A stretch of DNA of 64,000 nt from Escherichia coli (GCF_003018255.1 NZ_CP027440.1); one strand, 5' to 3'. Shown: positions 982-32,185, numbered from the stretch's first letter. Notes: generated by a model not told the origin, from the sequence alone. Numbers and translations: made by a program.

Positions 982-1411
982 GACGCCATATCATAGCAGC
1001 CAGCCTCTTGATACCCAATCTCTTGCTTCTGGAAAAACGCGGTAATAGAGAAAGAGGTTAATTTCATTTGGCAAAGGGAAGTATCATCAGCAAAATATTC
1101 ACTGTAGATGTATCGAATTTTCTGACTCATTTACCCTATTTCCCATCCTGATGCGTAATAATCCCAATTTATCACATTGATTTTATCGCCACTCATATTG
1201 ATACGTATCACTGCCCCTATTCAGGGTCCTGTTTCGTATCATATCTGTGTTTTTTTAACATCATCACACTTCCTTCCTCCCTTAACGCTTATCGTCGTTT
1301 CTGGCGTAAATCTTGCCTGCTTAGACTAAATCTTTGCCATAAGAACCAAATGTTCAAATCGAGGGGATTTCTATGGAAGCGCGGGAAGCAACCGCTACAG
1401 GTGAATCATGC

Positions 1412-5074: not shown

Positions 5075-6853
5075 TTATGTGTTTAACAACTCATATTTCT
5101 TAATCTTGCGATAGAGCGTAGCAATGCCGATGCCCAGTTCATCAGCAACTTCCTTCTTGCTGTTATGACGTGAAAGCGCCTCGCGGATCATTTGCTTTTC
5201 CATCTCCTCCAGCGCCGTGCCGCCCGCATCATCGAGTGCCAGGTGCGCCTCACTGACCTCTGTTACATCACTTTGCTCCGTTGTGCCATTATTCAGCAGA
5301 TTTGGCGGCAATAGCGTGCTGTCGATAACTTCACCTGAAGGAACCACGTTAACCAGATATTCCATCAAATTGCTTAACTCGCGCAGGTTTCCGGGCCAAC
5401 GATGCTTACGCAATATTTCGACGACATCGGGAGCAATGCCCGGATAAACCGATCCCAGACGACGGGTATGCAGATGTAAAAAGTAATGCACCAGTAGTTC
5501 AATATCTTCCTGACGTTCACGCAGCGGTGGCAGAGTTATCGGGATAACATTAAGTCGGTAGAAGAGATCTTCGCGGAATTTACCTTCGGAAATGAACTGG
5601 GCCAAATTCTGGTTAGTTGCAGAAATGATGCGAATGTCGACTTGTATTGGGCTACTGGCACCAATCGGCAGAATTTCACGTGCCTCAATAGCGCGCAGTA
5701 ATTTAGCCTGCAACATTAATGGCATATCACCTATTTCATCGAGAAACAGCGTGCCCGTATTCGCCGCCTGAATCAACCCTGTTTTACCGTTGGCAGAAGC
5801 GCCAGTAAATGCGCCTTTAACATAACCGAACAGTTCGCTCTCCAGAAGCTGCTCCGGAATCGCGGCACAGTTGATAGCAATAAAAGGTTTATTCCGTCTT
5901 CCGCTCAACTTATGGATTGCACGGGCGACGACTTCTTTACCCGTGCCGCTTTCGCCAACCACCATAACGCTGGATGGGCTGGGTGCAATACGGCTAATGA
6001 GTCGTTTTAATTGCCGCATAACACGGCACTCGCCAACCAATTGTTCAATATGCGGTTCATCAGGTGCATTTGCTACAGAAAAACTGGTATGCGATTGGTG
6101 AAACGCCATTAAAAATAATTGTCGGCCCTGAATGTTATGCAATTGACCAATGATTAATTCACTTTTATCGTCCCACGAAACAATATGCTGCATATGTCCA
6201 TGGGTAAAATTACTCTCAAATGTTAATGGTCTGAAACGAACAGGTTTCCCAATAATATTATTTTGCACAACACCGAGTGTTTTTAAGGCAGTCTGATTAA
6301 CAAACTGAACCCGATTTTCGTCATCAACAACTAAAACGCCCTGATCCATATTATCGATCATGGTCGCGAATATTTTACTGATGTTATCTCCTGGCCCCTG
6401 ATCCTCCAGAAGTTTCGAAACAAAAATGGTGGATATATGGCGAACGTAATCAGAAAATTCGCGTAAATTATCACTGATATGTTCTTGTTGCTCGTGGGTA
6501 ACGGCAATCAAACTTATCACCCCAACACAACGATCCTGTAAAATGACAGGCGTACCCAGAAATGCTTTTTCGCGGCAATTTTCTTTACTATCGCAACCTT
6601 CACAAAGGGGATCGAAGCGAGACTGTGTCACAACTTTTTCAGTTTTCGTTTCCAGGACGTGGCGGAGCAGGCGTGAGTTGCCGCTCAACTGGCGACCAAG
6701 AAACTTCCCATACGCGCCCGTTCCGGCGACGCGACACAAGTTTTCATCAACGATCTCAACCTCAAGCTGCAAAACGCTGGCAAGCATTCTGGCAAAACGC
6801 TGAATTGTCGGTTGAATTTGCATCAATACTGACTGCGTAGTAGCAAGCTCCAT
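5075..6853 (-). CDS. ygeV: sigma-54-dependent transcriptional activator (bacterial enhancer-binding protein)
   Basis: 592 aa; Walker A GESGTGKE, sigma-54 contact motif GAFTGA, C-terminal HTH (IATLYRKIKKY), N-terminal sensory region. Confidence 0.9.
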   Translation of the reverse strand: MELATTQSVLMQIQPTIQRFARMLASVLQLEVEIVDENLCRVAGTGAYGKFLGRQLSGNSRLLRHVLETKTEKVVTQSRFDPLCEGCDSKENCREKAFLGTPVILQDRCVGVISLIAVTHEQQEHISDNLREFSDYVRHISTIFVSKLLEDQGPGDNISKIFATMIDNMDQGVLVVDDENRVQFVNQTALKTLGVVQNNIIGKPVRFRPLTFESNFTHGHMQHIVSWDDKSELIIGQLHNIQGRQLFLMAFHQSHTSFSVANAPDEPHIEQLVGECRVMRQLKRLISRIAPSPSSVMVVGESGTGKEVVARAIHKLSGRRNKPFIAINCAAIPEQLLESELFGYVKGAFTGASANGKTGLIQAANTGTLFLDEIGDMPLMLQAKLLRAIEAREILPIGASSPIQVDIRIISATNQNLAQFISEGKFREDLFYRLNVIPITLPPLRERQEDIELLVHYFLHLHTRRLGSVYPGIAPDVVEILRKHRWPGNLRELSNLMEYLVNVVPSGEVIDSTLLPPNLLNNGTTEQSDVTEVSEAHLALDDAGGTALEEMEKQMIREALSRHNSKKEVADELGIGIATLYRKIKKYELLNT

Positions 6854-7222
6854 AGCTTTACCTTCCAGACTTACTTAAAAGTCGATCATTGAAGACGTTG
6901 ATGGTTCATAGATCATGATGATATTAACTCAGGCGAAATTGGCTTTGATAAAAACATAAGATTTTTATCACTTTCTAATGAAATTATGGAAGAGATATCA
7001 CATTTCTATATCAATATGAGAATTACGGCGGTGAGTTTATCAAACTGAAGAGAGATCGCCTGTCCCTTTATCTTATTTCTGATACTTAGCAGCAAATAAA
7101 TAACGCGATAAAAAAAGCCAAACGTTTTCGTATTTTACAAACAACCAGAAGCTGGCATCAATTTGTGATCAACCCCACACATTATCCGTCAAATTAGTCT
7201 TTTGCAGCCCCGTGGATAATTC

Positions 7223-7238
7223 TGGCACACTTATTGTT
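7223..7238 (+). promoter_or_regulatory. candidate sigma-54 -24/-12 promoter upstream of ygeW
   Basis: TGGCACacttaTTGTT: exact -24 TGGCAC, correct spacing, -12 TTGT instead of TTGC; about 90 nt upstream of the ygeW ATG. Confidence 0.35.
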
Positions 7239-7328
7239 AGTCCCAGGTATAGCTGTGAAAACACCAATCACGTTGGCAAGTCACAGTGAAATAAACCACT
7301 TTGCCTGTCATTCCACTACCGGGACTTT

Positions 7329-8519
7329 ATGATGAAAACTGTTAATGAGCTGATTAAGGATATCAATTCGCTGACCTCTCACCTTCACGAGAAAGATTTT
7401 TTGTTAACGTGGGAACAGACGCCAGATGAACTGAAACAAGTACTGGACGTTGCCGCAGCATTAAAAGCACTGCGTGCTGAAAACATCTCAACCAAAGTCT
7501 TTAATAGTGGATTAGGTATTTCCGTATTCCGCGACAACTCCACCCGTACCCGCTTCTCTTATGCTTCCGCGCTTAACCTGCTCGGCCTTGCACAGCAAGA
7601 TCTCGACGAAGGCAAATCACAAATCGCTCACGGCGAAACCGTGCGTGAAACCGCCAATATGATCTCCTTCTGCGCCGACGCTATTGGTATTCGCGACGAT
7701 ATGTATCTGGGCGCAGGCAACGCCTATATGCGTGAAGTTGGCGCTGCACTTGATGACGGTTACAAGCAGGGTGTGCTGCCGCAACGTCCGGCTTTAGTGA
7801 ACCTGCAATGCGATATTGACCACCCGACTCAGTCAATGGCTGACCTGGCATGGTTACGTGAACACTTTGGTTCACTGGAAAACCTGAAAGGTAAAAAAAT
7901 CGCCATGACCTGGGCCTACTCCCCAAGCTATGGCAAACCGCTCTCTGTACCACAAGGCATCATCGGTCTGATGACTCGCTTCGGTATGGATGTCACCCTG
8001 GCCCATCCGGAAGGCTACGACCTGATCCCGGATGTCGTTGAAGTCGCTAAAAACAATGCTAAAGCCTCCGGCGGTAGCTTCCGTCAGGTCACCAGCATGG
8101 AAGAAGCCTTCAAAGACGCAGACATCGTTTATCCGAAGTCATGGGCACCTTACAAAGTGATGGAAGAGCGTACTGAATTGCTGCGTGCGAACGATCACGA
8201 AGGCTTAAAAGCACTGGAAAAACAGTGTCTGGCACAGAACGCGCAACACAAAGACTGGCATTGTACTGAAGAGATGATGGAACTGACCCGTGATGGCGAA
8301 GCCCTGTACATGCACTGCCTGCCAGCTGATATCAGCGGCGTATCCTGCAAAGAAGGTGAAGTGACTGAAGGCGTATTCGAAAAATACCGTATCGCTACCT
8401 ACAAAGAAGCCAGCTGGAAGCCTTATATCATCGCCGCGATGATCCTGTCCCGTAAATACGCCAAACCAGGTGCACTGCTCGAGCAACTGCTGAAAGAAGC
8501 GCAAGAACGCGTGAAATAA
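7329..8519 (+). CDS. ygeW: carbamoyltransferase (ornithine/aspartate transcarbamylase fold; recalled as oxamate carbamoyltransferase)
   Basis: 396 aa; carbamoyl-phosphate binding motif STRTR (NSTRTRFSYASA). Confidence 0.85.
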   Translation: MMKTVNELIKDINSLTSHLHEKDFLLTWEQTPDELKQVLDVAAALKALRAENISTKVFNSGLGISVFRDNSTRTRFSYASALNLLGLAQQDLDEGKSQIAHGETVRETANMISFCADAIGIRDDMYLGAGNAYMREVGAALDDGYKQGVLPQRPALVNLQCDIDHPTQSMADLAWLREHFGSLENLKGKKIAMTWAYSPSYGKPLSVPQGIIGLMTRFGMDVTLAHPEGYDLIPDVVEVAKNNAKASGGSFRQVTSMEEAFKDADIVYPKSWAPYKVMEERTELLRANDHEGLKALEKQCLAQNAQHKDWHCTEEMMELTRDGEALYMHCLPADISGVSCKEGEVTEGVFEKYRIATYKEASWKPYIIAAMILSRKYAKPGALLEQLLKEAQERVK

Positions 8520-8525
8520 CCCCTC

Positions 8526-8547
8526 GGGCCGATCAGCTGGTCGGCCC
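8526..8547 (+). terminator. hairpin downstream of ygeW (weak terminator or mRNA stabiliser)
   Basis: GGGCCGA-tcagctgg-TCGGCCC stem-loop right after the ygeW stop; weak T tract. Confidence 0.35.
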
Positions 8548-8576
8548 TCTATTTCCAGAGGCCAAAAGGATAGGAT

Positions 8577-9773
8577 ATGTCCGTTTTCTCATTGAAGATT
8601 GATATCGCCGATAACAAATTTTTCAACGGCGAAACATCACCGCTTTTTTCGCAAAGCCAGGCAAAACTGGCACGCCAGTTCCACCAGAAAATTGCTGGTT
8701 ATCACCCAACACCGCTTTGTGCGCTGGACGATCTCGCAAACCTGTTTGGTGTAAAGAAAATTCTCGTCAAAGACGAATCAAAACGATTCGGTCTGAACGC
8801 CTTCAAAATGCTTGGCGGTGCGTACGCCATCGCTCAATTATTGTGTGAAAAATATCATCTTGATATCGAAACGCTGTCATTTGAGCACCTGAAAAATGCC
8901 ATCGGCGAAAAAATGACTTTCGCGACTACCACCGACGGCAACCACGGGCGCGGTGTGGCATGGGCAGCACAGCAACTCGGACAGAATGCGGTGATTTACA
9001 TGCCGAAAGGTTCTGCTCAGGAACGCGTTGACGCCATTCTAAACCTCGGTGCCGAGTGCATCGTCACGGATATGAACTATGACGATACCGTTCGCCTGAC
9101 CATGCAACACGCGCAGCAGCACGGCTGGGAAGTGGTACAGGACACGGCATGGGAAGGTTACACCAAAATCCCAACCTGGATCATGCAAGGCTACGCAACA
9201 CTGGCGGATGAAGCCGTCGAGCAAATGCGTGAAATGGGCGTCACCCCGACACACGTTCTGCTGCAAGCCGGTGTCGGTGCAATGGCCGGTGGTGTGCTGG
9301 GTTATCTGGTCGACGTCTATAGCCCGCAAAATCTGCACAGCATTATTGTTGAACCTGACAAAGCTGACTGTATTTATCGCTCCGGCGTCAAAGGCGACAT
9401 CGTCAACGTTGGCGGTGATATGGCCACCATCATGGCGGGCCTGGCCTGCGGCGAACCTAACCCACTGGGCTGGGAAATCCTACGTAACTGCGCCACCCAA
9501 TTCATCTCCTGCCAGGACAGCGTTGCCGCATTAGGTATGCGCGTGCTGGGTAATCCGTATGGCAACGACCCGCGCATCATCTCCGGTGAATCCGGCGCTG
9601 TCGGTTTGGGCGTTCTCGCAGCGGTTCATTATCACCCGCAACGTCAAAGCCTGATGGAAAAACTGGCGCTGAACAAAGATGCCGTGGTGCTGGTTATCAG
9701 CACTGAAGGCGACACCGACGTGAAGCACTACCGCGAAGTTGTCTGGGAAGGCAAACACGCTGTAGCACCTTAA
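8577..9773 (+). CDS. ygeX: PLP-dependent 2,3-diaminopropionate ammonia-lyase
   Basis: 398 aa; fold-type II PLP enzyme lysine motif (NAFKMLGGAY). Confidence 0.85.
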   Translation: MSVFSLKIDIADNKFFNGETSPLFSQSQAKLARQFHQKIAGYHPTPLCALDDLANLFGVKKILVKDESKRFGLNAFKMLGGAYAIAQLLCEKYHLDIETLSFEHLKNAIGEKMTFATTTDGNHGRGVAWAAQQLGQNAVIYMPKGSAQERVDAILNLGAECIVTDMNYDDTVRLTMQHAQQHGWEVVQDTAWEGYTKIPTWIMQGYATLADEAVEQMREMGVTPTHVLLQAGVGAMAGGVLGYLVDVYSPQNLHSIIVEPDKADCIYRSGVKGDIVNVGGDMATIMAGLACGEPNPLGWEILRNCATQFISCQDSVAALGMRVLGNPYGNDPRIISGESGAVGLGVLAAVHYHPQRQSLMEKLALNKDAVVLVISTEGDTDVKHYREVVWEGKHAVAP

Positions 9774-9830
9774 TCACCCTATTGGAACTGCTCCCTGCAA
9801 AACGGGGAGTAAAAAATCTGGAGAAAAATA

Positions 9831-11042
9831 ATGGCTAAGAATATTCCATTCAAACTGATTCTTGAAAAAGCAAAAGATTACCAGGCAGACATGACTCGCT
9901 TCCTGCGCGATATGGTTGCTATTCCCAGTGAAAGCTGCGACGAGAAACGCGTAGTACATCGTATTAAAGAAGAGATGGAAAAAGTCGGCTTCGATAAAGT
10001 TGAAATCGACCCGATGGGCAACGTTCTCGGTTATATCGGCCACGGCCCGCGTCTGGTGGCAATGGACGCTCATATCGATACCGTCGGCATTGGCAACATC
10101 AAAAACTGGGACTTCGATCCGTACGAAGGCATGGAAACTGATGAGCTGATCGGTGGTCGCGGTACTTCCGACCAGGAAGGCGGCATGGCATCTATGGTTT
10201 ATGCCGGTAAAATCATTAAAGACCTCGGTCTGGAAGATGAATATACCCTGCTGGTTACCGGTACTGTGCAGGAAGAAGACTGCGACGGCCTGTGCTGGCA
10301 GTACATTATTGAACAATCCGGCATTCGCCCGGAATTTGTGGTCAGTACCGAACCAACCGACTGCCAGGTATACCGTGGTCAGCGCGGTCGTATGGAAATT
10401 CGTATTGATGTTCAGGGTGTGAGCTGCCACGGTTCTGCACCAGAACGCGGTGACAACGCCATTTTCAAAATGGGTCCGATTCTTGGCGAATTACAAGAAC
10501 TCTCCCAACGTCTGGGTTATGACGAATTCCTCGGCAAAGGCACCCTCACCGTTTCTGAAATCTTCTTCACATCCCCAAGCCGTTGCGCTGTAGCAGATAG
10601 CTGCGCCGTCTCTATTGACCGCCGTCTGACCTGGGGCGAAACCTGGGAAGGCGCGCTGGACGAAATCCGCGCCCTGCCTGCAGTACAGAAAGCTAACGCG
10701 GTTGTTTCTATGTACAACTACGACCGTCCGTCCTGGACTGGCCTGGTTTACCCAACCGAATGCTACTTCCCGACCTGGAAAGTGGAAGAAGATCACTTCA
10801 CCGTTAAAGCACTGGTGAATGCCTACGAAGGTCTGTTTGGCAAAGCGCCGGTTGTTGATAAGTGGACCTTCTCAACTAACGGCGTATCTATCATGGGCCG
10901 TCACGGCATTCCGGTGATCGGCTTTGGCCCGGGTAAAGAACCTGAAGCGCATGCACCTAACGAAAAAACCTGGAAATCTCACCTGGTGACCTGTGCCGCG
11001 ATGTACGCTGCAATCCCGTTAAGCTGGCTGGCAACCGAATAA
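9831..11042 (+). CDS. ygeY: M20-family metallopeptidase / amidohydrolase (ArgE/DapE-like)
   Basis: 403 aa; M20-type metal-ligand pattern. Confidence 0.8.
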
Positions 11043-11094
11043 TTACTCTTCACTTATTCCCCTCCGGTTCGCCGGAGGGTTTTTGGAGTTTGCT

Positions 11095-12480
11095 ATGCGC
11101 GTATTGATCAAAAACGGCACTGTCGTTAACGCAGATGGACAAGCCAAACAAGATTTGCTGATTGAGAGCGGGATTGTTCGCCAATTGGGCAGCAATATTT
11201 CGCCGCAGGTCCCGTATGAAGAAATTGATGCCACTGGCTGTTACGTTTTCCCTGGCGGCGTGGATGTCCATACGCATTTCAATATTGATGTCGGCATCGC
11301 GCGCAGTTGTGATGATTTTTTTACCGGTACCCGCGCAGCTGCGTGTGGCGGTACAACAACCATTATTGACCATATGGGATTTGGCCCGAATGGCTGCCGG
11401 TTACGCCATCAACTGGAAGTTTATCGCGGTTATGCCGCCCACAAAGCAGTCATCGACTACAGCTTTCACGGTGTCATTCAACATATCAATCACGCTATCC
11501 TCGACGAAATTCCGATGATGGTTGAGGAAGGACTGAGCAGTTTTAAACTCTATTTAACCTATCAATATAAACTCAACGATGATGAAGTGTTGCAGGCATT
11601 ACGCCGCTTGCATGAATCCGGCGCGCTGACCACCGTGCACCCGGAAAATGACGCAGCTATCGCCAGCAAGCGGGCGGAGTTTATCGCCGCAGGGTTAACC
11701 GCGCCGCGTTATCATGCCTTGAGTCGACCTCTGGAATGCGAAGCGGAAGCCATCGCCCGCATGATTAACCTGGCACAAATTGCCGGTAACGCCCCGCTCT
11801 ATATCGTGCACCTGTCTAACGGCTTAGGTCTGGATTATCTGCGTCTTGCCCGTGCGAATCACCAGCCAGTCTGGGTTGAAACCTGCCCACAATATCTCCT
11901 GTTGGACGAACGCAGTTACGATACAGAAGATGGCATGAAGTTCATTCTTAGCCCACCGCTGCGTAACGTACGCGAGCAGGACAAACTGTGGTGTGGCATC
12001 AGCGATGGTGCGATTGACGTGGTAGCGACCGATCACTGCACATTCTCGATGGCTCAACGCCTGCAAATTTCTAAAGGCGATTTCAGTCGCTGCCCAAATG
12101 GCTTACCCGGTGTGGAAAACCGCATGCAGTTACTGTTTTCCAGTGGCGTTATGACGGGACGTATAACACCGGAACGTTTTGTTGAATTAACCAGCGCGAT
12201 GCCCGCCAGGCTGTTTGGCCTGTGGCCGCAAAAAGGATTATTAGCGCCCGGTTCCGATGGCGACGTGGTGATTATCGACCCACGTCAGAGTCAACAAATT
12301 CAGCATCGCCATCTCCACGACAACGCCGACTACTCGCCATGGGAGGGTTTTACCTGTCAGGGCGCGATTGTCAGAACTTTATCCCGTGGTGAAACGATTT
12401 TCTGTGACGGCACCTTTACAGGCAAAGCCGGGCGAGGTCGTTTCCTGCGACGCAAACCGTTTGTCCCTCCCGTGCTCTAA
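11095..12480 (+). CDS. hyuA: cyclic amidohydrolase (D-hydantoinase/dihydropyrimidinase family)
   Basis: Track ORF 11083..12480; start trimmed to MRVLIKNG (461 aa); metal-binding HxH motif GGVDVHTHF. Confidence 0.85.
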   Translation: MRVLIKNGTVVNADGQAKQDLLIESGIVRQLGSNISPQVPYEEIDATGCYVFPGGVDVHTHFNIDVGIARSCDDFFTGTRAAACGGTTTIIDHMGFGPNGCRLRHQLEVYRGYAAHKAVIDYSFHGVIQHINHAILDEIPMMVEEGLSSFKLYLTYQYKLNDDEVLQALRRLHESGALTTVHPENDAAIASKRAEFIAAGLTAPRYHALSRPLECEAEAIARMINLAQIAGNAPLYIVHLSNGLGLDYLRLARANHQPVWVETCPQYLLLDERSYDTEDGMKFILSPPLRNVREQDKLWCGISDGAIDVVATDHCTFSMAQRLQISKGDFSRCPNGLPGVENRMQLLFSSGVMTGRITPERFVELTSAMPARLFGLWPQKGLLAPGSDGDVVIIDPRQSQQIQHRHLHDNADYSPWEGFTCQGAIVRTLSRGETIFCDGTFTGKAGRGRFLRRKPFVPPVL

Positions 12481-12527
12481 CCACTGCCAGGGATCTATAC
12501 ACAATCAAGAATGATGAGTGAGGAAAA

Positions 12528-13460
12528 ATGAGTAAGAAAATTGTTCTCGCCCTGGGCGGGAATGCGCTGGGCGATGACCTGGCCGGACAAATGAAAGCGG
12601 TAAAAATTACTTCTCAGGCAATTGTTGATTTAATTGCCCAGGGACATGAAGTTATCGTCACTCACGGTAACGGGCCACAGGTGGGCATGATTAACCAGGC
12701 CTTTGAAGCTGCCGCAAAAACTGAAGCGCACTCGCCAATGCTGCCGATGTCTGTCTGTGTTGCCTTAAGCCAGGGTTATATTGGTTACGATCTACAAAAC
12801 GCATTAAGAGAAGAACTGCTTTCTCGTGGCATTAATAAACCTGTAGCAACGCTGGTTACCCAGGTCGAAGTCGATGCTAACGACCCGGCATTCCTCAACC
12901 CGACCAAGCCGATCGGTTCGTTCTTTACCGAGCAGGAAGCAGAGCAACTGACAAAACAGGGTTACACTCTGAAAGAAGATGCTGGTCGCGGCTATCGCCG
13001 TGTTGTTGCCTCGCCGAAACCGGTTGATATTATTGAAAAAGAGACGGTAAAAGCGCTGGTAGAAGCAGGCCAGGTAGTGATCACCGTTGGCGGTGGTGGC
13101 ATTCCCGTTATTCGTGAAGGGAACCATCTGCGCGGTGCCAGTGCGGTTATCGATAAAGACTGGGCCAGCGCCCGTTTAGCAGAAATGATTGATGCCGATA
13201 TGCTGATCATTCTGACTGCGGTAGAAAAAGTGGCCATTAACTTCGGTAAAGAGAATGAACAGTGGCTCGATCGCCTGTCATTAAGTGATGCTGAACGCTT
13301 TATCGAAGAAGGTCATTTTGCGAAAGGTTCTATGCTGCCTAAAGTGGAAGCTGCCGCCTCGTTTGCTCGCTCTCGCGCAGGTCGTGAAGCACTGATTACC
13401 GTATTGAGCAAAGCGAAAGAAGGGATTGAAGGCAAAACCGGAACGGTGATTTGTCAGTAA
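12528..13460 (+). CDS. yqeA: carbamate kinase-like protein
   Basis: 310 aa; amino-acid kinase family N-terminus KIVLALGGNALG. Confidence 0.85.
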   Translation: MSKKIVLALGGNALGDDLAGQMKAVKITSQAIVDLIAQGHEVIVTHGNGPQVGMINQAFEAAAKTEAHSPMLPMSVCVALSQGYIGYDLQNALREELLSRGINKPVATLVTQVEVDANDPAFLNPTKPIGSFFTEQEAEQLTKQGYTLKEDAGRGYRRVVASPKPVDIIEKETVKALVEAGQVVITVGGGGIPVIREGNHLRGASAVIDKDWASARLAEMIDADMLIILTAVEKVAINFGKENEQWLDRLSLSDAERFIEEGHFAKGSMLPKVEAAASFARSRAGREALITVLSKAKEGIEGKTGTVICQ

Positions 13461-13466
13461 TTTAAA

Positions 13467-13497
13467 GGCCGGGTGGGTAATACCATCCGGCCATTTT
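13467..13497 (+). terminator. intrinsic terminator after yqeA
   Basis: GGCCGGGTGG-gtaata-CCATCCGGCC hairpin followed by ATTTTC. Confidence 0.5.
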
Positions 13498-13500
13498 CAT

Positions 13501-15126
13501 TTAAGCCACTTCCAGCACTTCTTTCGTCGCTTTAACGCCCTGATGCATCAACATCATTAACGCCTCAAGTACGCCGCCGCCAATCGCCCGGGCTTTATCA
13601 GAAACGCTGGTGAAATCAGCCGTTTCACCACGAGGATCGATATCACCAATTTTAAAACCACCGACCACTGCCAGTCCGTCGTTCAACAAGCCACGCACCA
13701 TCCCCGTCAACGGTGCTTTAATTTCATGCTCACCAATCCAGGCAATCACATCGCCCTCTTTCACCAGATCGCCTAATTTCACGTTGGATCGCATAATGCC
13801 TGCAGCAGGAGCACGGATCACCCGTCGGGTGGTATGCCCCATAATATTGCCAGGAACACCGGTATTCTCCTGCGCACAACCAGAGTAAATCACCTGACCG
13901 AGCCAGTGCCCGCGATTTGTTTCAATTACCGCATGACAATCCTTCCCTGCAGTAAAGCCCGGCCCAAGCGCGATTGTTACTGGTGCCATATCTGCCCGCG
14001 TCCCCAAATTCTGTTTCGCCAGAATAGCGTCCACCACGCAAAGCGGTTTCAGTTCATCAAGCAATGAACAGGCGGGATCTACTATCACAGGGATGAATCC
14101 GCATTCGGTAAGTTTCATCGCCTCCGCAGAGCTGGTTGCCAGGCGGGCGGTGACGCCTTCGACCGTCATTTCGCCATCGAACACGGCCTGGGCAAATGCC
14201 ACGGTACAACGAATCACTGTCGGTTTTTCCACTTCCAGCATGATCACTTTAAAACCCGCATGATACAGACGTAGCGCTACACCACTGGCGATATCCCCCG
14301 CACCACGAATCACCACCAGCTGGTGTCCGGAAGGATGAGAAGGCTTCATCATCAGCCCACCCGGCGCGTTATTTTTCACCTGTAATATTTCTGCCAGCAC
14401 GCTGATGGCGATCTCCTGCGGCGTTTCCGCACCTATGTTGTAACCAACGGGCGCATGTAAACGGGCAATATGTTCTTCAGCCACGCCTTTCTCACGCAAT
14501 TGGCGCAGGAAAAGCTGAACCTTGCGGCGACTTGCCAGCAACCCCAGCCATGCAATGGGTTGTTCAATGAGTTTGTCGAGGGCTTCACGATCCTGATTAT
14601 TCGTGGCAATCAGGACAAAATTATCAGGGCGAATATCCAGTGCTTCCACTGCCGCACCAAACGACTCAGCATGGAGAAGCGTGGTTGATGGTGGGAATAG
14701 TTCAGGATTGAGGCTTTCGCGATAAATATCGGCAACGGCGATATCAAATCCTAATAGCGCCGCACTCTGGGCTATCGCCCGGTTGACATGCCCCGCGCCA
14801 ATCAACACCAGACGTGGACGCATACCATGGACGCTGATAAATACTGACATTGCACCTCCACAATCTGACCCGACAGCATCCGCACCGTTACGAGCCATAC
14901 GTCCATGGAATAATCGCGGCTTACGTTCCTGCAATGCCTGAAGCGACTCTTCAATCACCTTCCGCTCAACCATTCCGCCACCAATTGTACCGACGATAGA
15001 GCCATCGGCGCGCACTAACATTTGTGCAGAATGGCGGGGGGTTGAGCCTCGGCTATCAACAATTTGCGCCATCGCAAACGGACAATTTTGCTCTTCGAGT
15101 TTTGCAGCCTCTGTGAAAATATTCAT
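13501..15126 (-). CDS. yqeB: XdhC/CoxI-family molybdenum-hydroxylase accessory protein
   Basis: 541 aa; Rossmann-like LVLIGAGHV; family recalled as selenium-dependent molybdenum hydroxylase system protein YqeB. Confidence 0.8.
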   Translation of the reverse strand: MNIFTEAAKLEEQNCPFAMAQIVDSRGSTPRHSAQMLVRADGSIVGTIGGGMVERKVIEESLQALQERKPRLFHGRMARNGADAVGSDCGGAMSVFISVHGMRPRLVLIGAGHVNRAIAQSAALLGFDIAVADIYRESLNPELFPPSTTLLHAESFGAAVEALDIRPDNFVLIATNNQDREALDKLIEQPIAWLGLLASRRKVQLFLRQLREKGVAEEHIARLHAPVGYNIGAETPQEIAISVLAEILQVKNNAPGGLMMKPSHPSGHQLVVIRGAGDIASGVALRLYHAGFKVIMLEVEKPTVIRCTVAFAQAVFDGEMTVEGVTARLATSSAEAMKLTECGFIPVIVDPACSLLDELKPLCVVDAILAKQNLGTRADMAPVTIALGPGFTAGKDCHAVIETNRGHWLGQVIYSGCAQENTGVPGNIMGHTTRRVIRAPAAGIMRSNVKLGDLVKEGDVIAWIGEHEIKAPLTGMVRGLLNDGLAVVGGFKIGDIDPRGETADFTSVSDKARAIGGGVLEALMMLMHQGVKATKEVLEVA

Positions 15127-15173
15127 ACCAACCTCAATGGATATCCTTTCAGTAACCCGGAATACCCGGGCCG

Positions 15174-15944
15174 CTAATTCACAAATCTGCGCGCGATTGC
15201 AGGATGTTCTTGTATATCGCCCAGCCAGATTGCCTCTACGTCGTGTTGTTGCAGCGGTTGAAGGAGCTCGCTTTGCGCAATCGCATTCTCACATTGAGAA
15301 AAACGGTTAATGAACCAGACTCGCCGACAACCTTGCGGTACGTTTTTAAACGCCCCCTGAGGGTGGCGAACCAGCGCAACGAGATCGCTCAGTTGCAAGG
15401 TTGCATCAGGTGTTAACCCGGTAATATCAGCAAACTGCGACCAGCGATGGACATTTTCTGTGCTCACTTTCGCACCCAAAATATGTCCTCCCATCACAGC
15501 AATCACGCAGCAACTGCTTTTAGGTATGCAAGGTTCGTGCTCATCAGGCGCTTTTAACGGCATTCCACGCGAGCCATCTGCCTCAATGAGAATTACGTCA
15601 CACTCTGATCGTTGTACCAGTGCATCAATCGCTTCTGGCGTAAATCCCTGCACTTTTCCCTGGTTCGCTTTCCAGCTGTGAAAACAAAATGAAATGGGGG
15701 ATATAAAAGACGCATGAGGAAGCATGGCGGGATCACGACAGAAAACCACGGGCCAGTGAGATGTTGGCATAAACATATGTGTCGTCGTAGTGATTAATAC
15801 ACGCCTGCCGCTCGCCTGGAACAGTTCTGCCAGCCAAAAAAGCAAGCTGGTTTTCCCCCCAGCACCAACAACAGAAATCACAGTGGGACGTTTCTGCGCG
15901 CCTAAATCAATGAATAATGCCGATGGGTCAATTATACTTTTCAC
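15174..15944 (-). CDS. yqeC: putative selenium-dependent molybdenum hydroxylase accessory protein (P-loop)
   Basis: 256 aa; P-loop-like VVGAGGKTSLLFWL. Confidence 0.75.
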   Translation of the reverse strand: MKSIIDPSALFIDLGAQKRPTVISVVGAGGKTSLLFWLAELFQASGRRVLITTTTHMFMPTSHWPVVFCRDPAMLPHASFISPISFCFHSWKANQGKVQGFTPEAIDALVQRSECDVILIEADGSRGMPLKAPDEHEPCIPKSSCCVIAVMGGHILGAKVSTENVHRWSQFADITGLTPDATLQLSDLVALVRHPQGAFKNVPQGCRRVWFINRFSQCENAIAQSELLQPLQQHDVEAIWLGDIQEHPAIARRFVN

Positions 15945-16047
15945 GCGTCTTTATGGACCTCTCTGGGATAAATTACCCTCAACTTAATCCATCAGGAAGT
16001 AACGCAATTATCAGGCGTTATTAGCTCCTGTAAATAATGGAATCACT

Positions 16048-16626
16048 ATGTCAGCCATCGACTGTATAATTACCGCCGCAGGATTATCATCAAGAATGGG
16101 GCAATGGAAAATGATGTTACCCTGGCAACAGGGAACAATTCTTGATACAAGTATCAAAAATGCGTTGCAGTTTTGTAGCCGAATTATTTTAGTCACCGGC
16201 TATCGTGGTAATGAACTGCACGAACGTTATGCGAACCAGAGCAATATCACTATTATCCACAACCCAGATTATGCGCAGGGTTTACTGACATCAGTAAAGG
16301 CCGCAGTACCCGCGGTGCAAACAGAACATTGTTTTCTCACCCACGGAGATATGCCAACCCTCACCATCGATATTTTTAGAAAAATCTGGTCGTTACGAAA
16401 TGATGGCGCAATACTGCCACTCCATAATGGCATCCCCGGCCATCCGATTTTAGTGTCAAAACCATGCCTGATGCAGGCAATCCAGCGACCCAATGTCACC
16501 AATATGCGTCAGGCACTCCTTATGGGAGAACATTATTCCGTCGAAATAGAAAATGCAGAAATAATTTTAGATATTGATACTCCTGACGACTTTATTACAG
16601 CGAAGAAAAGGTATACTGAAATTTAG
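16048..16626 (+). CDS. mocA: molybdenum cofactor cytidylyltransferase
   Basis: 192 aa; nucleotidyltransferase N-terminal motif ITAAGLSSRMG; divergent from yqeC. Confidence 0.85.
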   Translation: MSAIDCIITAAGLSSRMGQWKMMLPWQQGTILDTSIKNALQFCSRIILVTGYRGNELHERYANQSNITIIHNPDYAQGLLTSVKAAVPAVQTEHCFLTHGDMPTLTIDIFRKIWSLRNDGAILPLHNGIPGHPILVSKPCLMQAIQRPNVTNMRQALLMGEHYSVEIENAEIILDIDTPDDFITAKKRYTEI

Positions 16627-16677
16627 AAAACGTAGTTAAACGATTGCGTTCAAATATTTAATCCCTCCAGCACTCTT

Positions 16678-16692
16678 TATCATAATGATAAG
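16678..16692. promoter_or_regulatory. perfect 7-1-7 palindrome TTATCAT-A-ATGATAA upstream of ygfK
   Basis: Read directly from the sequence; further TGATAA/TTATCAC-type half-sites nearby (16723-16730 GTGATAAA). Confidence 0.3.
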
Positions 16693-16859
16693 GAATCACT
16701 GATTTTGAGAAAAGAGAAAAAGTGATAAATGGGCTGGCAATAATAATTTTCAGGAGTGATTTTAATTCTCATTTGGCACCTGTGAGTTCATTCACAAAAA
16801 GCCATTAAGTTTCGAGCCGCCTCACATTTTTTTATATTTCCCGCCAAACCTGGCAAGAG

Positions 16860-16875
16860 TGGTGCGATTGTTGCT
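16860..16875 (+). promoter_or_regulatory. candidate sigma-54 -24/-12 promoter upstream of ygfK
   Basis: TGGtgCGattgTTGCT: GG-N10-GC spacing with TTGC -12 element; about 75 nt upstream of the ygfK ATG. Confidence 0.35.
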
Positions 16876-16947
16876 CTATCCCCCTAAACCACCGGATTTC
16901 TCAACACCGGTCACTCAATGATATCTGTATAAGCTAAGGAGAGGGTT

Positions 16948-19900
16948 ATGGGGGATATTATGCGTCCCATTCCGTTTGAGGAACTTTTGACGCGCATATT
17001 TGATGAATACCAACAACAACGCTCAATCTTTGGTATTCCCGAGCAACAGTTTTACTCACCCGTAAAAGGTAAAACTGTTAGCGTCTTCGGTGAAACCTGT
17101 GCCACTCCCGTCGGCCCTGCCGCTGGCCCGCACACGCAGCTCGCGCAAAATATTGTCACTTCCTGGCTGACTGGCGGACGCTTCATCGAACTAAAAACCG
17201 TCCAAATTCTTGACCGCCTGGAGCTGGAAAAGCCCTGTATCGATGCCGAAGACGAGTGCTTTAACACCGAATGGTCTACCGAATTTACCCTGCTTAAAGC
17301 CTGGGATGAATACCTCAAAGCCTGGTTTGCCCTGCACCTTCTCGAAGCGATGTTCCAGCCTTCTGATTCCTGTAAATCGTTCATCTTTAATATGAGCGTC
17401 GGTTACAACCTCGAAGGTATTAAGCAACCGCCGATGCAGCAGTTCATCGACAATATGATGGACGCATCTGACCATCCGAAATTCGCTCAATACCGCGATG
17501 CACTTAATAAGCTACTCCAGGATGACGCATTTTTAGCCCGCCACGGCTTACAGGAAAAACGCGAAAGCTTGCAAGCCTTACCCGCTCGCATCCCCACCAG
17601 CATGGTACAAGGGGTTACCCTCTCCACCATGCACGGCTGTCCTCCGCATGAAATCGAAGCCATTTGCCGCTACATGCTGGAAGAAAAAGGGCTCAACACC
17701 TTTGTGAAACTCAACCCGACCTTACTGGGGTACGCGCGTGTTCGTGAGATCCTCGATGTCTGCGGTTTCGGTTACATCGGCTTAAAAGAAGAGTCATTTG
17801 ATCACGACCTCAAGCTGACGCAAGCACTGGAAATGCTGGAACGCCTGATGGCACTGGCAAAAGAAAAATCACTCGGCTTTGGCGTAAAACTGACTAACAC
17901 TCTCGGCACCATTAATAACAAAGGCGCACTGCCCGGTGAAGAGATGTATATGTCAGGCCGTGCGCTGTTCCCGCTCTCCATCAACGTTGCAGCAGTTCTC
18001 TCTCGCGCCTTTGACGGCAAACTGCCCATTTCTTATTCCGGTGGTGCCAGTCAGCTGACTATCCGCGATATTTTTGATACTGGTATTCGCCCTATTACTA
18101 TGGCAACCGACCTGCTGAAACCTGGCGGCTATCTGCGCTTAAGTGCCTGCATGCGCGAGCTGGAAGGCTCAGATGCCTGGGAGCTTAACCACGTTGACGT
18201 CGAACGACTGAACAGACTGGCAGCAGACGCGTTAACCATGGAATACACCCAGAAACACTGGAAGCCAGAAGAGCGTATTGAAGTGGCTGAAGACCTGCCG
18301 CTGACCGATTGCTACGTTGCCCCCTGTGTTACTGCCTGCGCTATCAAGCAAGATATTCCGGAATACATCCGTCTGCTTGGCGAACACCGCTATGCCGACG
18401 CGCTGGAACTCATCTATCAACGCAACGCCCTGCCCGCCATTACCGGTCATATTTGCGATCACCAGTGCCAATACAACTGTACCCGCCTGGATTACGACAG
18501 TGCGCTGAATATCCGCGAACTGAAAAAAGTCGCGCTGGAAAAAGGTTGGGATGAATATAAGCAACGCTGGCACAAACCAGCCGGTTCTGGTTCACGCCAT
18601 CCGGTTGCCGTGATTGGTGCAGGTCCGGCGGGTCTGGCAGCAGGTTACTTCCTTGCCAGAGCGGGCCATCCGGTTACGCTGTTTGAACGCGAAGCCAATG
18701 CGGGCGGCGTGGTGAAAAATATCATTCCTCAGTTCCGTATTCCTGCAGAGTTAATTCAGCACGATATCGATTTTGTTGCCGCTCACGGCGTAAAATTTGA
18801 GTATGGCTGCTCACCGGATCTGACCGTTGAACAGTTAAAAAATCAGGGCTTCCACTATGTTCTGATTGCCACCGGCACTGATAAAAATAGCGGTGTGAAA
18901 CTGGCGGGCGACAACCAAAATGTCTGGAAATCACTCCCCTTCCTGCGTGAATACAACAAGGGCACAGCGCTCAAGCTGGGCAAACATGTGGTCGTTGTCG
19001 GGGCGGGTAACACGGCAATGGACTGCGCTCGTGCGGCGTTACGCGTTCCAGGCGTAGAAAAAGCAACGGTCGTTTACCGTCGTTCACTGCAAGAGATGCC
19101 AGCATGGCGCGAAGAGTATGAAGAAGCGTTGCACGACGGCGTGGAGTTCCGTTTCCTGAATAATCCGGAACGTTTCGATGCTGATGGCACCTTAACCTTG
19201 CGCGTTATGTCGCTTGGCGAACCTGATGAGAAAGGTCGTCGCCGTCCGGTTGAAACCAACGAAACAGTAACACTGCATGTAGACAGCCTGATCACCGCCA
19301 TTGGTGAACAGCAGGATACTGAAGCCCTGAATGCGATGGGCGTGCCGCTGGACAAAAACGGCTGGCCAGACGTCGACCATAATGGCGAAACGCGTCTGAG
19401 TGACGTCTTTATGATCGGCGACGTACAGCGCGGACCATCCTCCATTGTCGCTGCTGTCGGAACCGCGCGTCGGGCGACCGATGCCATCCTGAGTCGGGAA
19501 AATATCCGTTCCCACCAGAACGATAAATACTGGAATAACGTCAATCCGGCGGAAATCTATCAACGTAAAGGCGATATCTCTGTCACTCTGGTGAACAGTG
19601 ACGATCGTGACGCGTTTGTCGCGCAGGAAGCCGCTCGCTGCCTTGAATGTAACTACGTTTGCAGCAAGTGTGTGGATGTCTGCCCGAACCGCGCCAACGT
19701 ATCCATTGCGGTCCCAGGCTTCCAGAACCGTTTCCAGACGCTGCATCTCGACGCCTACTGCAACGAATGCGGCAACTGCGCCCAATTCTGCCCGTGGAAC
19801 GGTAAACCGTACAAAGACAAAATCACCGTCTTCAGCCTGTCGCAAGACTTTGATAACAGCAGCAACCCAGGCTTCCTTGTGGAAGATTGCCGGGTACGCG

Positions 19901-31819: not shown

Positions 31820-32101
31820 TTGCATCCCTTTCATTTAATGAGTTATGTCTTCTCAAATTTCGCGATGCAATAAATGGGCATGTATTAGGTAGCATGGCCG
31901 ATTTAATTATAATTTTGCGACTGAGTTCAAATTATTGCCCCTCAATCTATGCAGCTTTCATTATTTCAACATTGCCGATCAAAAGAATGCTATCCAGATA
32001 AAAACGATTAAATGCGAGAGTGCGACATGCCAGAATGATTAATGAAATATCAATATGAGAAAATTACAGATAATTCCATTGTCAGGTTCTCTTCTCATTT
32101 T

Positions 32102-32116: not shown

Positions 32117-32169
32117 ATTATGTGATTACCTCCGCAATTCCTGTCTCTAACTCCCCTTCCTCGCAAAAC

Positions 32170-32185
32170 TGGCACTCCACGAGCA
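32170..32185 (+). promoter_or_regulatory. weak candidate sigma-54 -24/-12 element upstream of uacT
   Basis: TGGCACtccacgaGCA: exact -24, correct GG-N10-GC spacing, -12 lacks the TT. Confidence 0.25.

Follow-up and report, generated by a model that had tools for sequence, protein, structure and literature searches.

A palindrome upstream of ygfK in Escherichia coli is very probably an enhancer site of the DioR/YgeV type

Introduction

The spacer upstream of ygfK in Escherichia coli contains a perfect palindrome, and the question raised by this locus is which protein, if any, reads it. We approached this question in a 64,000-nucleotide stretch of E. coli DNA, referred to here as the window, in which the genes lie in the order ygeR-xdhABC-ygeV/ygeWXY-hyuA-yqeA-yqeBC-mocA-ygfK-ssnA-ygfM-xdhD-xanQ-guaD-ghxQ-ygfST/uacT. 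The mocA-ygfK junction, searched with an 801-bp query, is found at 95 to 100% identity in 5171 of 5426 complete E. coli genomes. A preliminary description of this DNA had raised the possibility that the palindrome belongs to a common operator for a shared regulator, also present upstream of xdhA and ygeW, and had left room for chance in AT-rich DNA and for a resemblance to Fur-type repeats.

One regulator encoded within the cluster is YgeV, also called IsrR, whose clostridial counterpart has been named DioR. Later papers cite Iwadate and Kato (2019) for a link between YgeV and anaerobic uric-acid consumption. A ygeV mutant is reported to express less ygfT, and the YgeV iModulon comprises the operons xdhABC, ygeWXY-hyuA, ygfK-ssnA-ygfM-xdhD, ygfT, and uacT; ybiY is another member. 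The protein has been linked as well to a gut-bacterial urate-degrading gene cluster relevant to gout and, as IsrR, to virulence genes in EHEC and Citrobacter rodentium, where direct action is an open question according to the IsrR paper. In recent papers on the urate pathway, the treatment of regulation is limited to noting a CRP site, and current engineering of probiotic urate strains replaces the ygeV-ygeW intergenic region wholesale. Within the literature searched, we found no binding site for E. coli YgeV/IsrR and no binding or mutational data, although an inverted repeat at these promoters may have been mentioned by Reitzer and Schneider in 2001.

Results

The palindrome, TTATCATAATGATAA, occupies positions 16677 to 16691 (no strand assigned), inside the 321-bp spacer between the mocA stop codon (16626) and the ygfK start (16948). 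It is a perfect 7-1-7 palindrome, as had been described, but it lies one base to the left of the position first given for it (16678 to 16692). Split as 6-3-6, it reads TTATCA-TAA-TGATAA, a dyad symmetry that suits a helix-turn-helix dimer. The neighboring elements that had been described are present as well, AATCACTGATTTT at 16694 to 16706 and GTGATAAA at 16722 to 16729. These half-site-like elements (16694 to 16729 overall, no strand assigned) are weak, reaching only 4.8 to 6.3 bits with the matrix introduced below, and may serve as putative auxiliary contacts 3′ of the palindrome. In a metagenomic gammaproteobacterial locus, the ygfK palindrome is likewise followed by an AATCACT element, at a different spacing, and in GTGATAAA the G varies between G and T among E. 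coli strains, with TGATAA kept. The palindrome itself is unchanged in all seven E. coli strains compared. Only 11 of the 321 spacer columns vary among these strains, however, and by simple arithmetic a 15-bp block would be spared by chance about 59% of the time; invariance within E. coli is therefore uninformative.

The case for a shared operator had first been made from a 9-mer, TATCACATT, common to the upstream regions of xdhA and ygeW. Its xdhA copy is exactly where it had been placed (1170 to 1178), but the ygeW copy lies at 6996 to 7004 rather than at 6995 to 7003. At least one shared 9-mer was found in 84% of Markov-1 random sets for the xdhA and ygeV/ygeW spacers. Sharing of this kind is expected by chance, so TATCACATT carries no evidential weight; only its xdhA copy falls within a full site.

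When the four sigma-54 regulatory regions in the window (xdhA, ygeW, ygfK, and ygfT/uacT) were compared in an unbiased k-mer search, a single 12-mer proved common to at least three of them, TATCAATATGAG, and none of 2000 random sets contained such a word. It is present exactly at 1192 to 1203 on the minus strand and at 7009 to 7020 and 32048 to 32059 on the plus strand, in three of the four regions. Counted by inspection, the ygfK palindrome agrees with it at 9 of 12 positions, and the two have a 5-3-5 core in common. What the regions truly share is T[A/C]TCA-N3-TGA[T/G]A, and TATCAATATGAG is the 12-mer that recurs exactly. There are 11 occurrences of the core pattern TATCANNNTGA in the window, compared to 1.44 expected, and 0 of 100 shuffles reached 11, so that the motif is enriched over shuffled background. 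With a threshold of 9 of the 10 core positions of T[AC]TCA-N3-TGA[TG]A, the window has twelve sites, and half of them (6/12) fall in the 2.1% of the window that lies 40 to 400 bp upstream of sigma-54 start sites. The window contains five perfect cores, all of them within the cluster. Together with the matrix results below, the enrichment and the 12-mer strongly support the idea of a common operator for a shared regulator upstream of xdhA, ygeW, and ygfK, and they extend it to a fourth region, ygfT/uacT.

This same unit has been predicted in another phylum. Nie et al. 2019 (BMC Genomics 20:565, PMC6615313) computationally predicted an upstream activating sequence (UAS), T[A/C]TCA-N3-TGA[T/G]A, for a clostridial sigma-54 activator, "DioR," with a regulon comprising dpaL-pyrC-argE, ygeW-ygfK-ssnA-ygeY, yqeB, yqeC-ygfJ-yqeB-xdhC, xdhABC, and pbuX and a function listed as "unknown." That study is computational and covers Clostridiales only, and ygeV is absent from its main text. 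Its UAS and the E. coli sites are alike in half-sites and spacing (TTATCA-N3-TGATAA), in placement upstream of -24/-12 promoters, and in the genes that they accompany (dpaL/ygeX, ygeW-ygfK-ssnA-ygeY, yqeB, yqeC-ygfJ, xdhABC, and pbuX). In C. difficile, the variant TTCTCA-N3-TGAGAA is found, and these half-sites explain the TGAGA half of the E. coli 12-mer. The E. coli promoters differ in having one or two strong sites, compared to two or three in Clostridia, and in mixing TGATA and TGAGA half-sites. The 19-mer at the ygfK palindrome, CTTTATCATAATGATAAGG (16675 to 16693), is identical at 18 of 19 positions to the UAS ATTTATCATAATGATAAGG of C. botulinum CBO2885 (ygeW-ygfK-ssnA-ygeY).

A symmetrised weight matrix was built from 19 clean published clostridial sites only, and the 64-kb E. 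coli window was scanned with it. The highest scores were those at 32045 (20.7 bits, ygfT/uacT), 7006 (17.9 bits, ygeW), 16675 (17.1 bits, ygfK), 15284 (15.4 bits, yqeC), and 1167 (13.0 bits, xdhA), which makes the ygfK site the third best of about 64,000 positions. A matrix derived from AT-rich genomes inflates scores in AT-rich DNA, and the shuffle controls keep composition: of 2000 dinucleotide shuffles, the observed score was reached by 1 for 32045, 16 for 7006, 19 for 16675, and 86 for 1167. Other AT-rich control windows of 350 bp peaked at no more than 7.1 bits.

A generic sigma-54 consensus scan of the window gave as many matches as in shuffles. We therefore took promoters from published ChIP-seq, in which sigma-54 sites were mapped upstream of xdhA, ygeW, ygfK, and ygfT (Bonocora et al. 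2015, PMC4591121). The ygfK promoter, GTGGTGCGATTGTTGCT (16859 to 16875, plus strand; ChIP-seq site OS31, 62 nt upstream of ygfK), has -24/-12 elements and a start site near 16886, which puts the center of the ygfK 19-mer at about -202. Upstream of the xdhABC promoter, CTGGCGTAAATCTTGCC (1301 to 1317, plus strand; OS29), there are two sites 21 bp apart. The first, ATTTATCACATTGATTTTA (1167 to 1185, plus strand), contains TATCACATT and is centered at -152; the second reads ACGTATCAATATGAGTGGC on the minus strand (1188 to 1206) and is centered at -131. The ygeWXY promoter, CTGGCACACTTATTGTT (7222 to 7238, plus strand; OS30), is preceded by CTATATCAATATGAGAATT (7006 to 7024, plus strand), centered at -234, and a genomic SELEX peak for the RpoN holoenzyme has been reported between ygeV and ygeW. 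A weaker site, ATAGATCATGATGATATTA (6908 to 6926, no strand assigned), with 9 of 10 core positions and 6.3 bits, lies near the ygeV start; this putative site may belong to ygeV itself or be a distal site for ygeW.

The best site in the window, AAATATCAATATGAGAAAA (32045 to 32063, plus strand), is common to the divergent genes ygfT and uacT. Its center lies at -199 from the ygfT start site and at -142 from a candidate uacT start site. The sigma-54 site upstream of ygfT is CATGCCCATTTATTGCA (31866 to 31882, minus strand; OS32), which reads TATGCCCGTTTATTGCA in K-12. The promoters of this cluster were reportedly first listed in a review by Reitzer and Schneider in 2001. At all four regions, sites lie 131 to 234 bp upstream of promoters mapped by ChIP-seq, within the UAS-to-promoter distances of about 70 to 240 bp implied by the published clostridial table, and the operons with sites are those of the YgeV iModulon.

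For uacT, a good -24/-12 match, CTGGCACTCCACGAGCA (32169 to 32185, plus strand), lies 70 bp upstream of the ATG (32255) and 142 bp downstream of the shared site. There is no mention of uacT/ygfU in the main text of the sigma-54 ChIP-seq paper (PMC4591121) or in the searched portion of its table text. This match, found by sequence, may be an unreported sigma-54 promoter.

Two of the mapped promoters depart from the consensus. At the ygfT site, the -24 element is without its canonical GG (C/TATGCCC...TTGCA), and two of its positions differ between this strain and K-12. The same odd form, TGTGCATCTTTTTTGCA or AATGCGCACGCTTATTGCA, is found upstream of the ygfT orthologues of Buttiauxella (locus L080, 16442 to 16458) and of the metagenomic gammaproteobacterium (L081, 16493 to 16511), so that the deviation appears to be conserved and not an accident. 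In the ygeW promoter, TTGT takes the place of TTGC at -12, and this form, TGGCAC/T-N5-TTGTT, is likewise a conserved departure, seen at 7222 to 7238 in the window, 9710 to 9726 (minus strand) in Buttiauxella L080, 9868 to 9884 (minus strand) in L081, and 452 to 468 in Endozoicomonas (L083). As for coordinates, a single offset aligns the published K-12 positions for xdhA and ygeW promoters with the window, and for the ygfK promoter the offset must be 179 bp larger, which implies that K-12 has about 179 bp more between ygeW and ygfK (window positions 7238 to 16859).

The ygeV gene (5075 to 6853, minus strand) encodes the proposed cognate activator. [quoted passage not shown] The domain search found no receiver domain.

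We then asked how far the arrangement is kept in other bacteria. A homologous-protein search with YgeV returned mostly E. coli variants 99 to 100% identical to it, which offer nothing for comparison, and the matches listed from a scan of public genomes were relatives at 33 to 50% identity, with no Escherichia or near relatives among them. A representative search yielded orthologues in Buttiauxella selenatireducens (53% identity), the metagenomic gammaproteobacterium (51%), and Endozoicomonas (45%), and all three loci contain ygeW-ygeX-ygeY-hyuA-yqeA, xdh, ygfT, and ygfK genes. More distant full-length relatives, at 36 to 38% identity among the matches listed, come from Sedimentibacter, Clostridium thailandense, and Propionigenium maris, and they too adjoin ygeX-, ygeW-, ygeY-, ygfK-, ssnA-, or xdh-like genes.

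Every sigma-54 promoter identified in these six loci has one to four sites with 9 or all 10 of the core positions, at -135 to -304. The promoters covered are those of ygfK (Buttiauxella and Endozoicomonas), ygeW/ygeX, xdh, ygfT, and one unnamed operon in C. thailandense. For ygfK, the Buttiauxella locus has GTCTCATTACGATAA at -160 from the promoter GTGGCGCGGTTGTTGCT, the Endozoicomonas locus has TTATCAGATTGATAG at -268, and the metagenomic locus has a perfect palindrome, TTCTCATAGTGAGAA, upstream of ygfK, with no ygfK promoter identified in that locus. The ygeW, xdh, and ygfT promoters of these three loci have one or two sites each, at -140 to -221. In the three distant loci, the spacer that follows each regulator gene holds three or four copies of TTATCA-N3-TGATAA, 135 to 304 bp upstream of a TTGGCA(C/T)AA...TTGCT promoter.

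The helix expected to read the DNA is kept as well. Despite low overall identity, the YgeV orthologues share LGIGIATLYRK (LGIGVATLYRK in L081), and all three intermediate ones end in ELGIGIATLYRKIKKY, with I replaced by V in L081. Among full-length YgeV-like representatives, LGIGIATLYRK is the form seen most often; in place of the G-I-A-T of YgeV, other activators have S-R-x-T. The persistence of this segment together with the layout of sites and promoters indicates that regulator, reading helix, site, and promoter travel together. On comparison with the clostridial and fusobacterial proteins encoded next to the cluster, which have an identical LGIGIATLYRK, YgeV is probably orthologous to DioR, with a conserved DNA-reading helix. 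When motif clusters were compared with the helix-turn-helix signature in 79 loci among the matches listed, the association was only partly clean. Few strong sites lie within the fetched flanks of two loci that encode the same helix, that of Eubacterium yurii and one from C. thailandense, and isolated motif matches also occur in unrelated loci among these 79.

Discussion

We propose that the palindrome upstream of ygfK is a UAS, or enhancer, for YgeV, acting as the sigma-54 activator of the genes for anaerobic purine and uric-acid degradation, and we put the probability of this reading at roughly 0.85. We imagine that a YgeV dimer would bind TTATCA and TGATAA, 3 bp apart, through its C-terminal Fis-type helix-turn-helix and that, upon activation of the sensor region by a presumed signal, YgeV would assemble into an AAA+ ring. 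By looping of the DNA, the ring could then contact the closed sigma-54 holoenzyme complex at the ygfK -24/-12 elements, about 200 bp downstream, and ATP hydrolysis would open the promoter and turn on ygfK-ssnA-ygfM-xdhD. Sites of the same type at the xdhA, ygeW, and ygfT/uacT promoters could co-ordinate the whole cluster for anaerobic purine and urate degradation.

[quoted passage not shown] The two systems also differ. NtrC is a phosphorylated response regulator with the consensus TGCACC-N5-GGTGCA, unrelated in sequence to the sites described here, whereas the sensor region of YgeV contains a PAS match and the protein gave no match to a receiver domain. In addition, glnAp2 has two adjacent strong NtrC sites, compared to one at ygfK.

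That single site speaks against an enhancer at ygfK. Activator rings normally assemble on several dimer sites; xdhA has its pair and clostridial promoters usually have two or three, whereas ygfK has one strong site plus the weak half-sites. So does the distance between site and promoter, which at about 200 bp is at the long end. Between them, at 16692 to 16858, no match to the IHF consensus WATCAANNNNTTR with at most one mismatch was found.

Among the alternatives, the one that survives best is that the motif is the operator of a different cluster-specific protein, such as a purine-responsive repressor or a nucleoid-associated protein, and travels with the cluster without being bound by YgeV. 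It is true that the motif is linked to YgeV only by co-occurrence and that copies are found inside ygeX and yqeC, where an enhancer role is less obvious. Yet of the regulator genes, only ygeV recurs in all the loci compared (E. coli, Buttiauxella, Endozoicomonas, Clostridium, Sedimentibacter, and Propionigenium), its recognition segment is conserved alongside the motif, and the sites lie at distances typical of a UAS from sigma-54 promoters rather than overlapping them. We consider a different protein improbable.

Less probable still is that the palindrome is a Fur box or the site of a similar iron-dependent repressor, a resemblance that the preliminary description had pointed out. Both are AT-rich and palindromic, they share the 10-mer ATAATGATAA (16683 to 16692 here, positions 2 to 11 of the Fur consensus GATAATGATAATCATTATC), and the downstream enzymes carry iron-sulfur clusters (Pfam Fer4 families). 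However, the best 19-mer match, at 16681, is only 13/19, a background score for the window, where 12 positions, most of them in coding sequence, reach 13/19 or more. At xdhA, ygeW, and ygfT, the related sites combine TGAGA half-sites with the 6-3-6 DioR geometry and do not consist of Fur hexamer repeats. Position also fits an enhancer and not a repressor operator, in that the only mapped start site lies about 200 bp downstream of the palindrome, which overlaps no plus-strand sigma-70-like promoter; none was found in 16550 to 16960.

Could the palindrome simply be a functionless product of AT-rich intergenic DNA? The mocA-ygfK region is 65% A+T, and the ease with which random sets come to share a 9-mer shows how often short words recur in such DNA. 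This caution, voiced from the start, is countered by the enrichment and the shuffle statistics, by a top-three rank with a matrix trained in another phylum, and by conservation of the site upstream of the ygfK orthologues in Buttiauxella, the metagenomic locus, and Endozoicomonas; a chance origin now seems hardly credible.

That the inverted repeat forms a hairpin terminating mocA, as its place just after the mocA stop codon (16626), 50 bp downstream of the mocA end, might suggest, can practically be dismissed, given a stem of A-U and U-A pairs save for one G-C pair per arm, a 1-nt loop, the lack of a T-run, and a terminator scan of 16550 to 16960 that found nothing. As judged by inspection, the palindrome does not contain the DnaA box TTATNCACA.

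On the comparisons above, the ygfK palindrome is thus very probably an element of an ordinary kind, the DioR/YgeV enhancer motif as it occurs in E. coli. It provides the first candidate operator in E. coli for the poorly studied YgeV, the motif itself having already been predicted in Clostridia. With an operator consensus and at least four mapped instances, the direct YgeV regulon becomes testable by genome-wide scanning, including the LEE island; the sites can be footprinted and mutated in reporters, and rational rewiring of the probiotic urate pathway can be put to the test. The proposed pair of activator and operator would be nearly unchanged across at least three phyla.

Two of the perfect core sites lie inside genes, in ygeX (8853 to 8865) and yqeC (15287 to 15299), which implies that not every match need be a functional enhancer. 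The site within yqeC, a minus-strand gene, is CATTCTCACATTGAGAAAA (15284 to 15302), the fourth-best matrix match at 15.4 bits. The yqeB start is about 160 bp downstream of this site, and about 220 bp upstream of it is PyqeC, a validated intragenic sigma-54 promoter that drives yqeB (15526 to 15542, minus strand). In Clostridia, yqeB and yqeC-ygfJ-yqeB are members of the DioR regulon (Nie et al. 2019, PMC6615313). The copy in the ygeX coding sequence is a second perfect palindrome, TATCATCTTGATA, with a match to TGGCACGCCAGTTCCA upstream at 8668 to 8683 and no mapped sigma-54 promoter nearby. A bolder and rather unlikely reading is that the motif is a YgeV/IsrR recognition code, read by an identical helix from Enterobacteriaceae to Clostridia and Fusobacteria, and that both perfect intragenic copies are working enhancers. 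If so, the yqeC copy would be a natural enhancer acting from downstream, and YgeV would be named as the activator of PyqeC.

Other repeats built from related half-sites were seen. In the ygeV-ygeW spacer, at 6946 to 6970, TGATAAAAA-N7-TTTTTATCA forms a 9-bp inverted repeat with outward-facing half-sites (TGATAA...TTATCA, 13 bp apart), a geometry unlike that of the UAS. In Citrobacter werkmanii (locus L002, 9800 to 9980), a YgeV paralogue with 38% identity and the helix LGISIATLYRK is encoded divergently from ygeX- and ygeY-like genes. The spacer there holds TTATC...GATAA repeats with longer spacers, TTTATCGTTTCATTTTGATAAA, TTCTCACAATTGATAA, and TTTATCACTTTTCATGATAAA, which suggests a related activator with altered half-site spacing.
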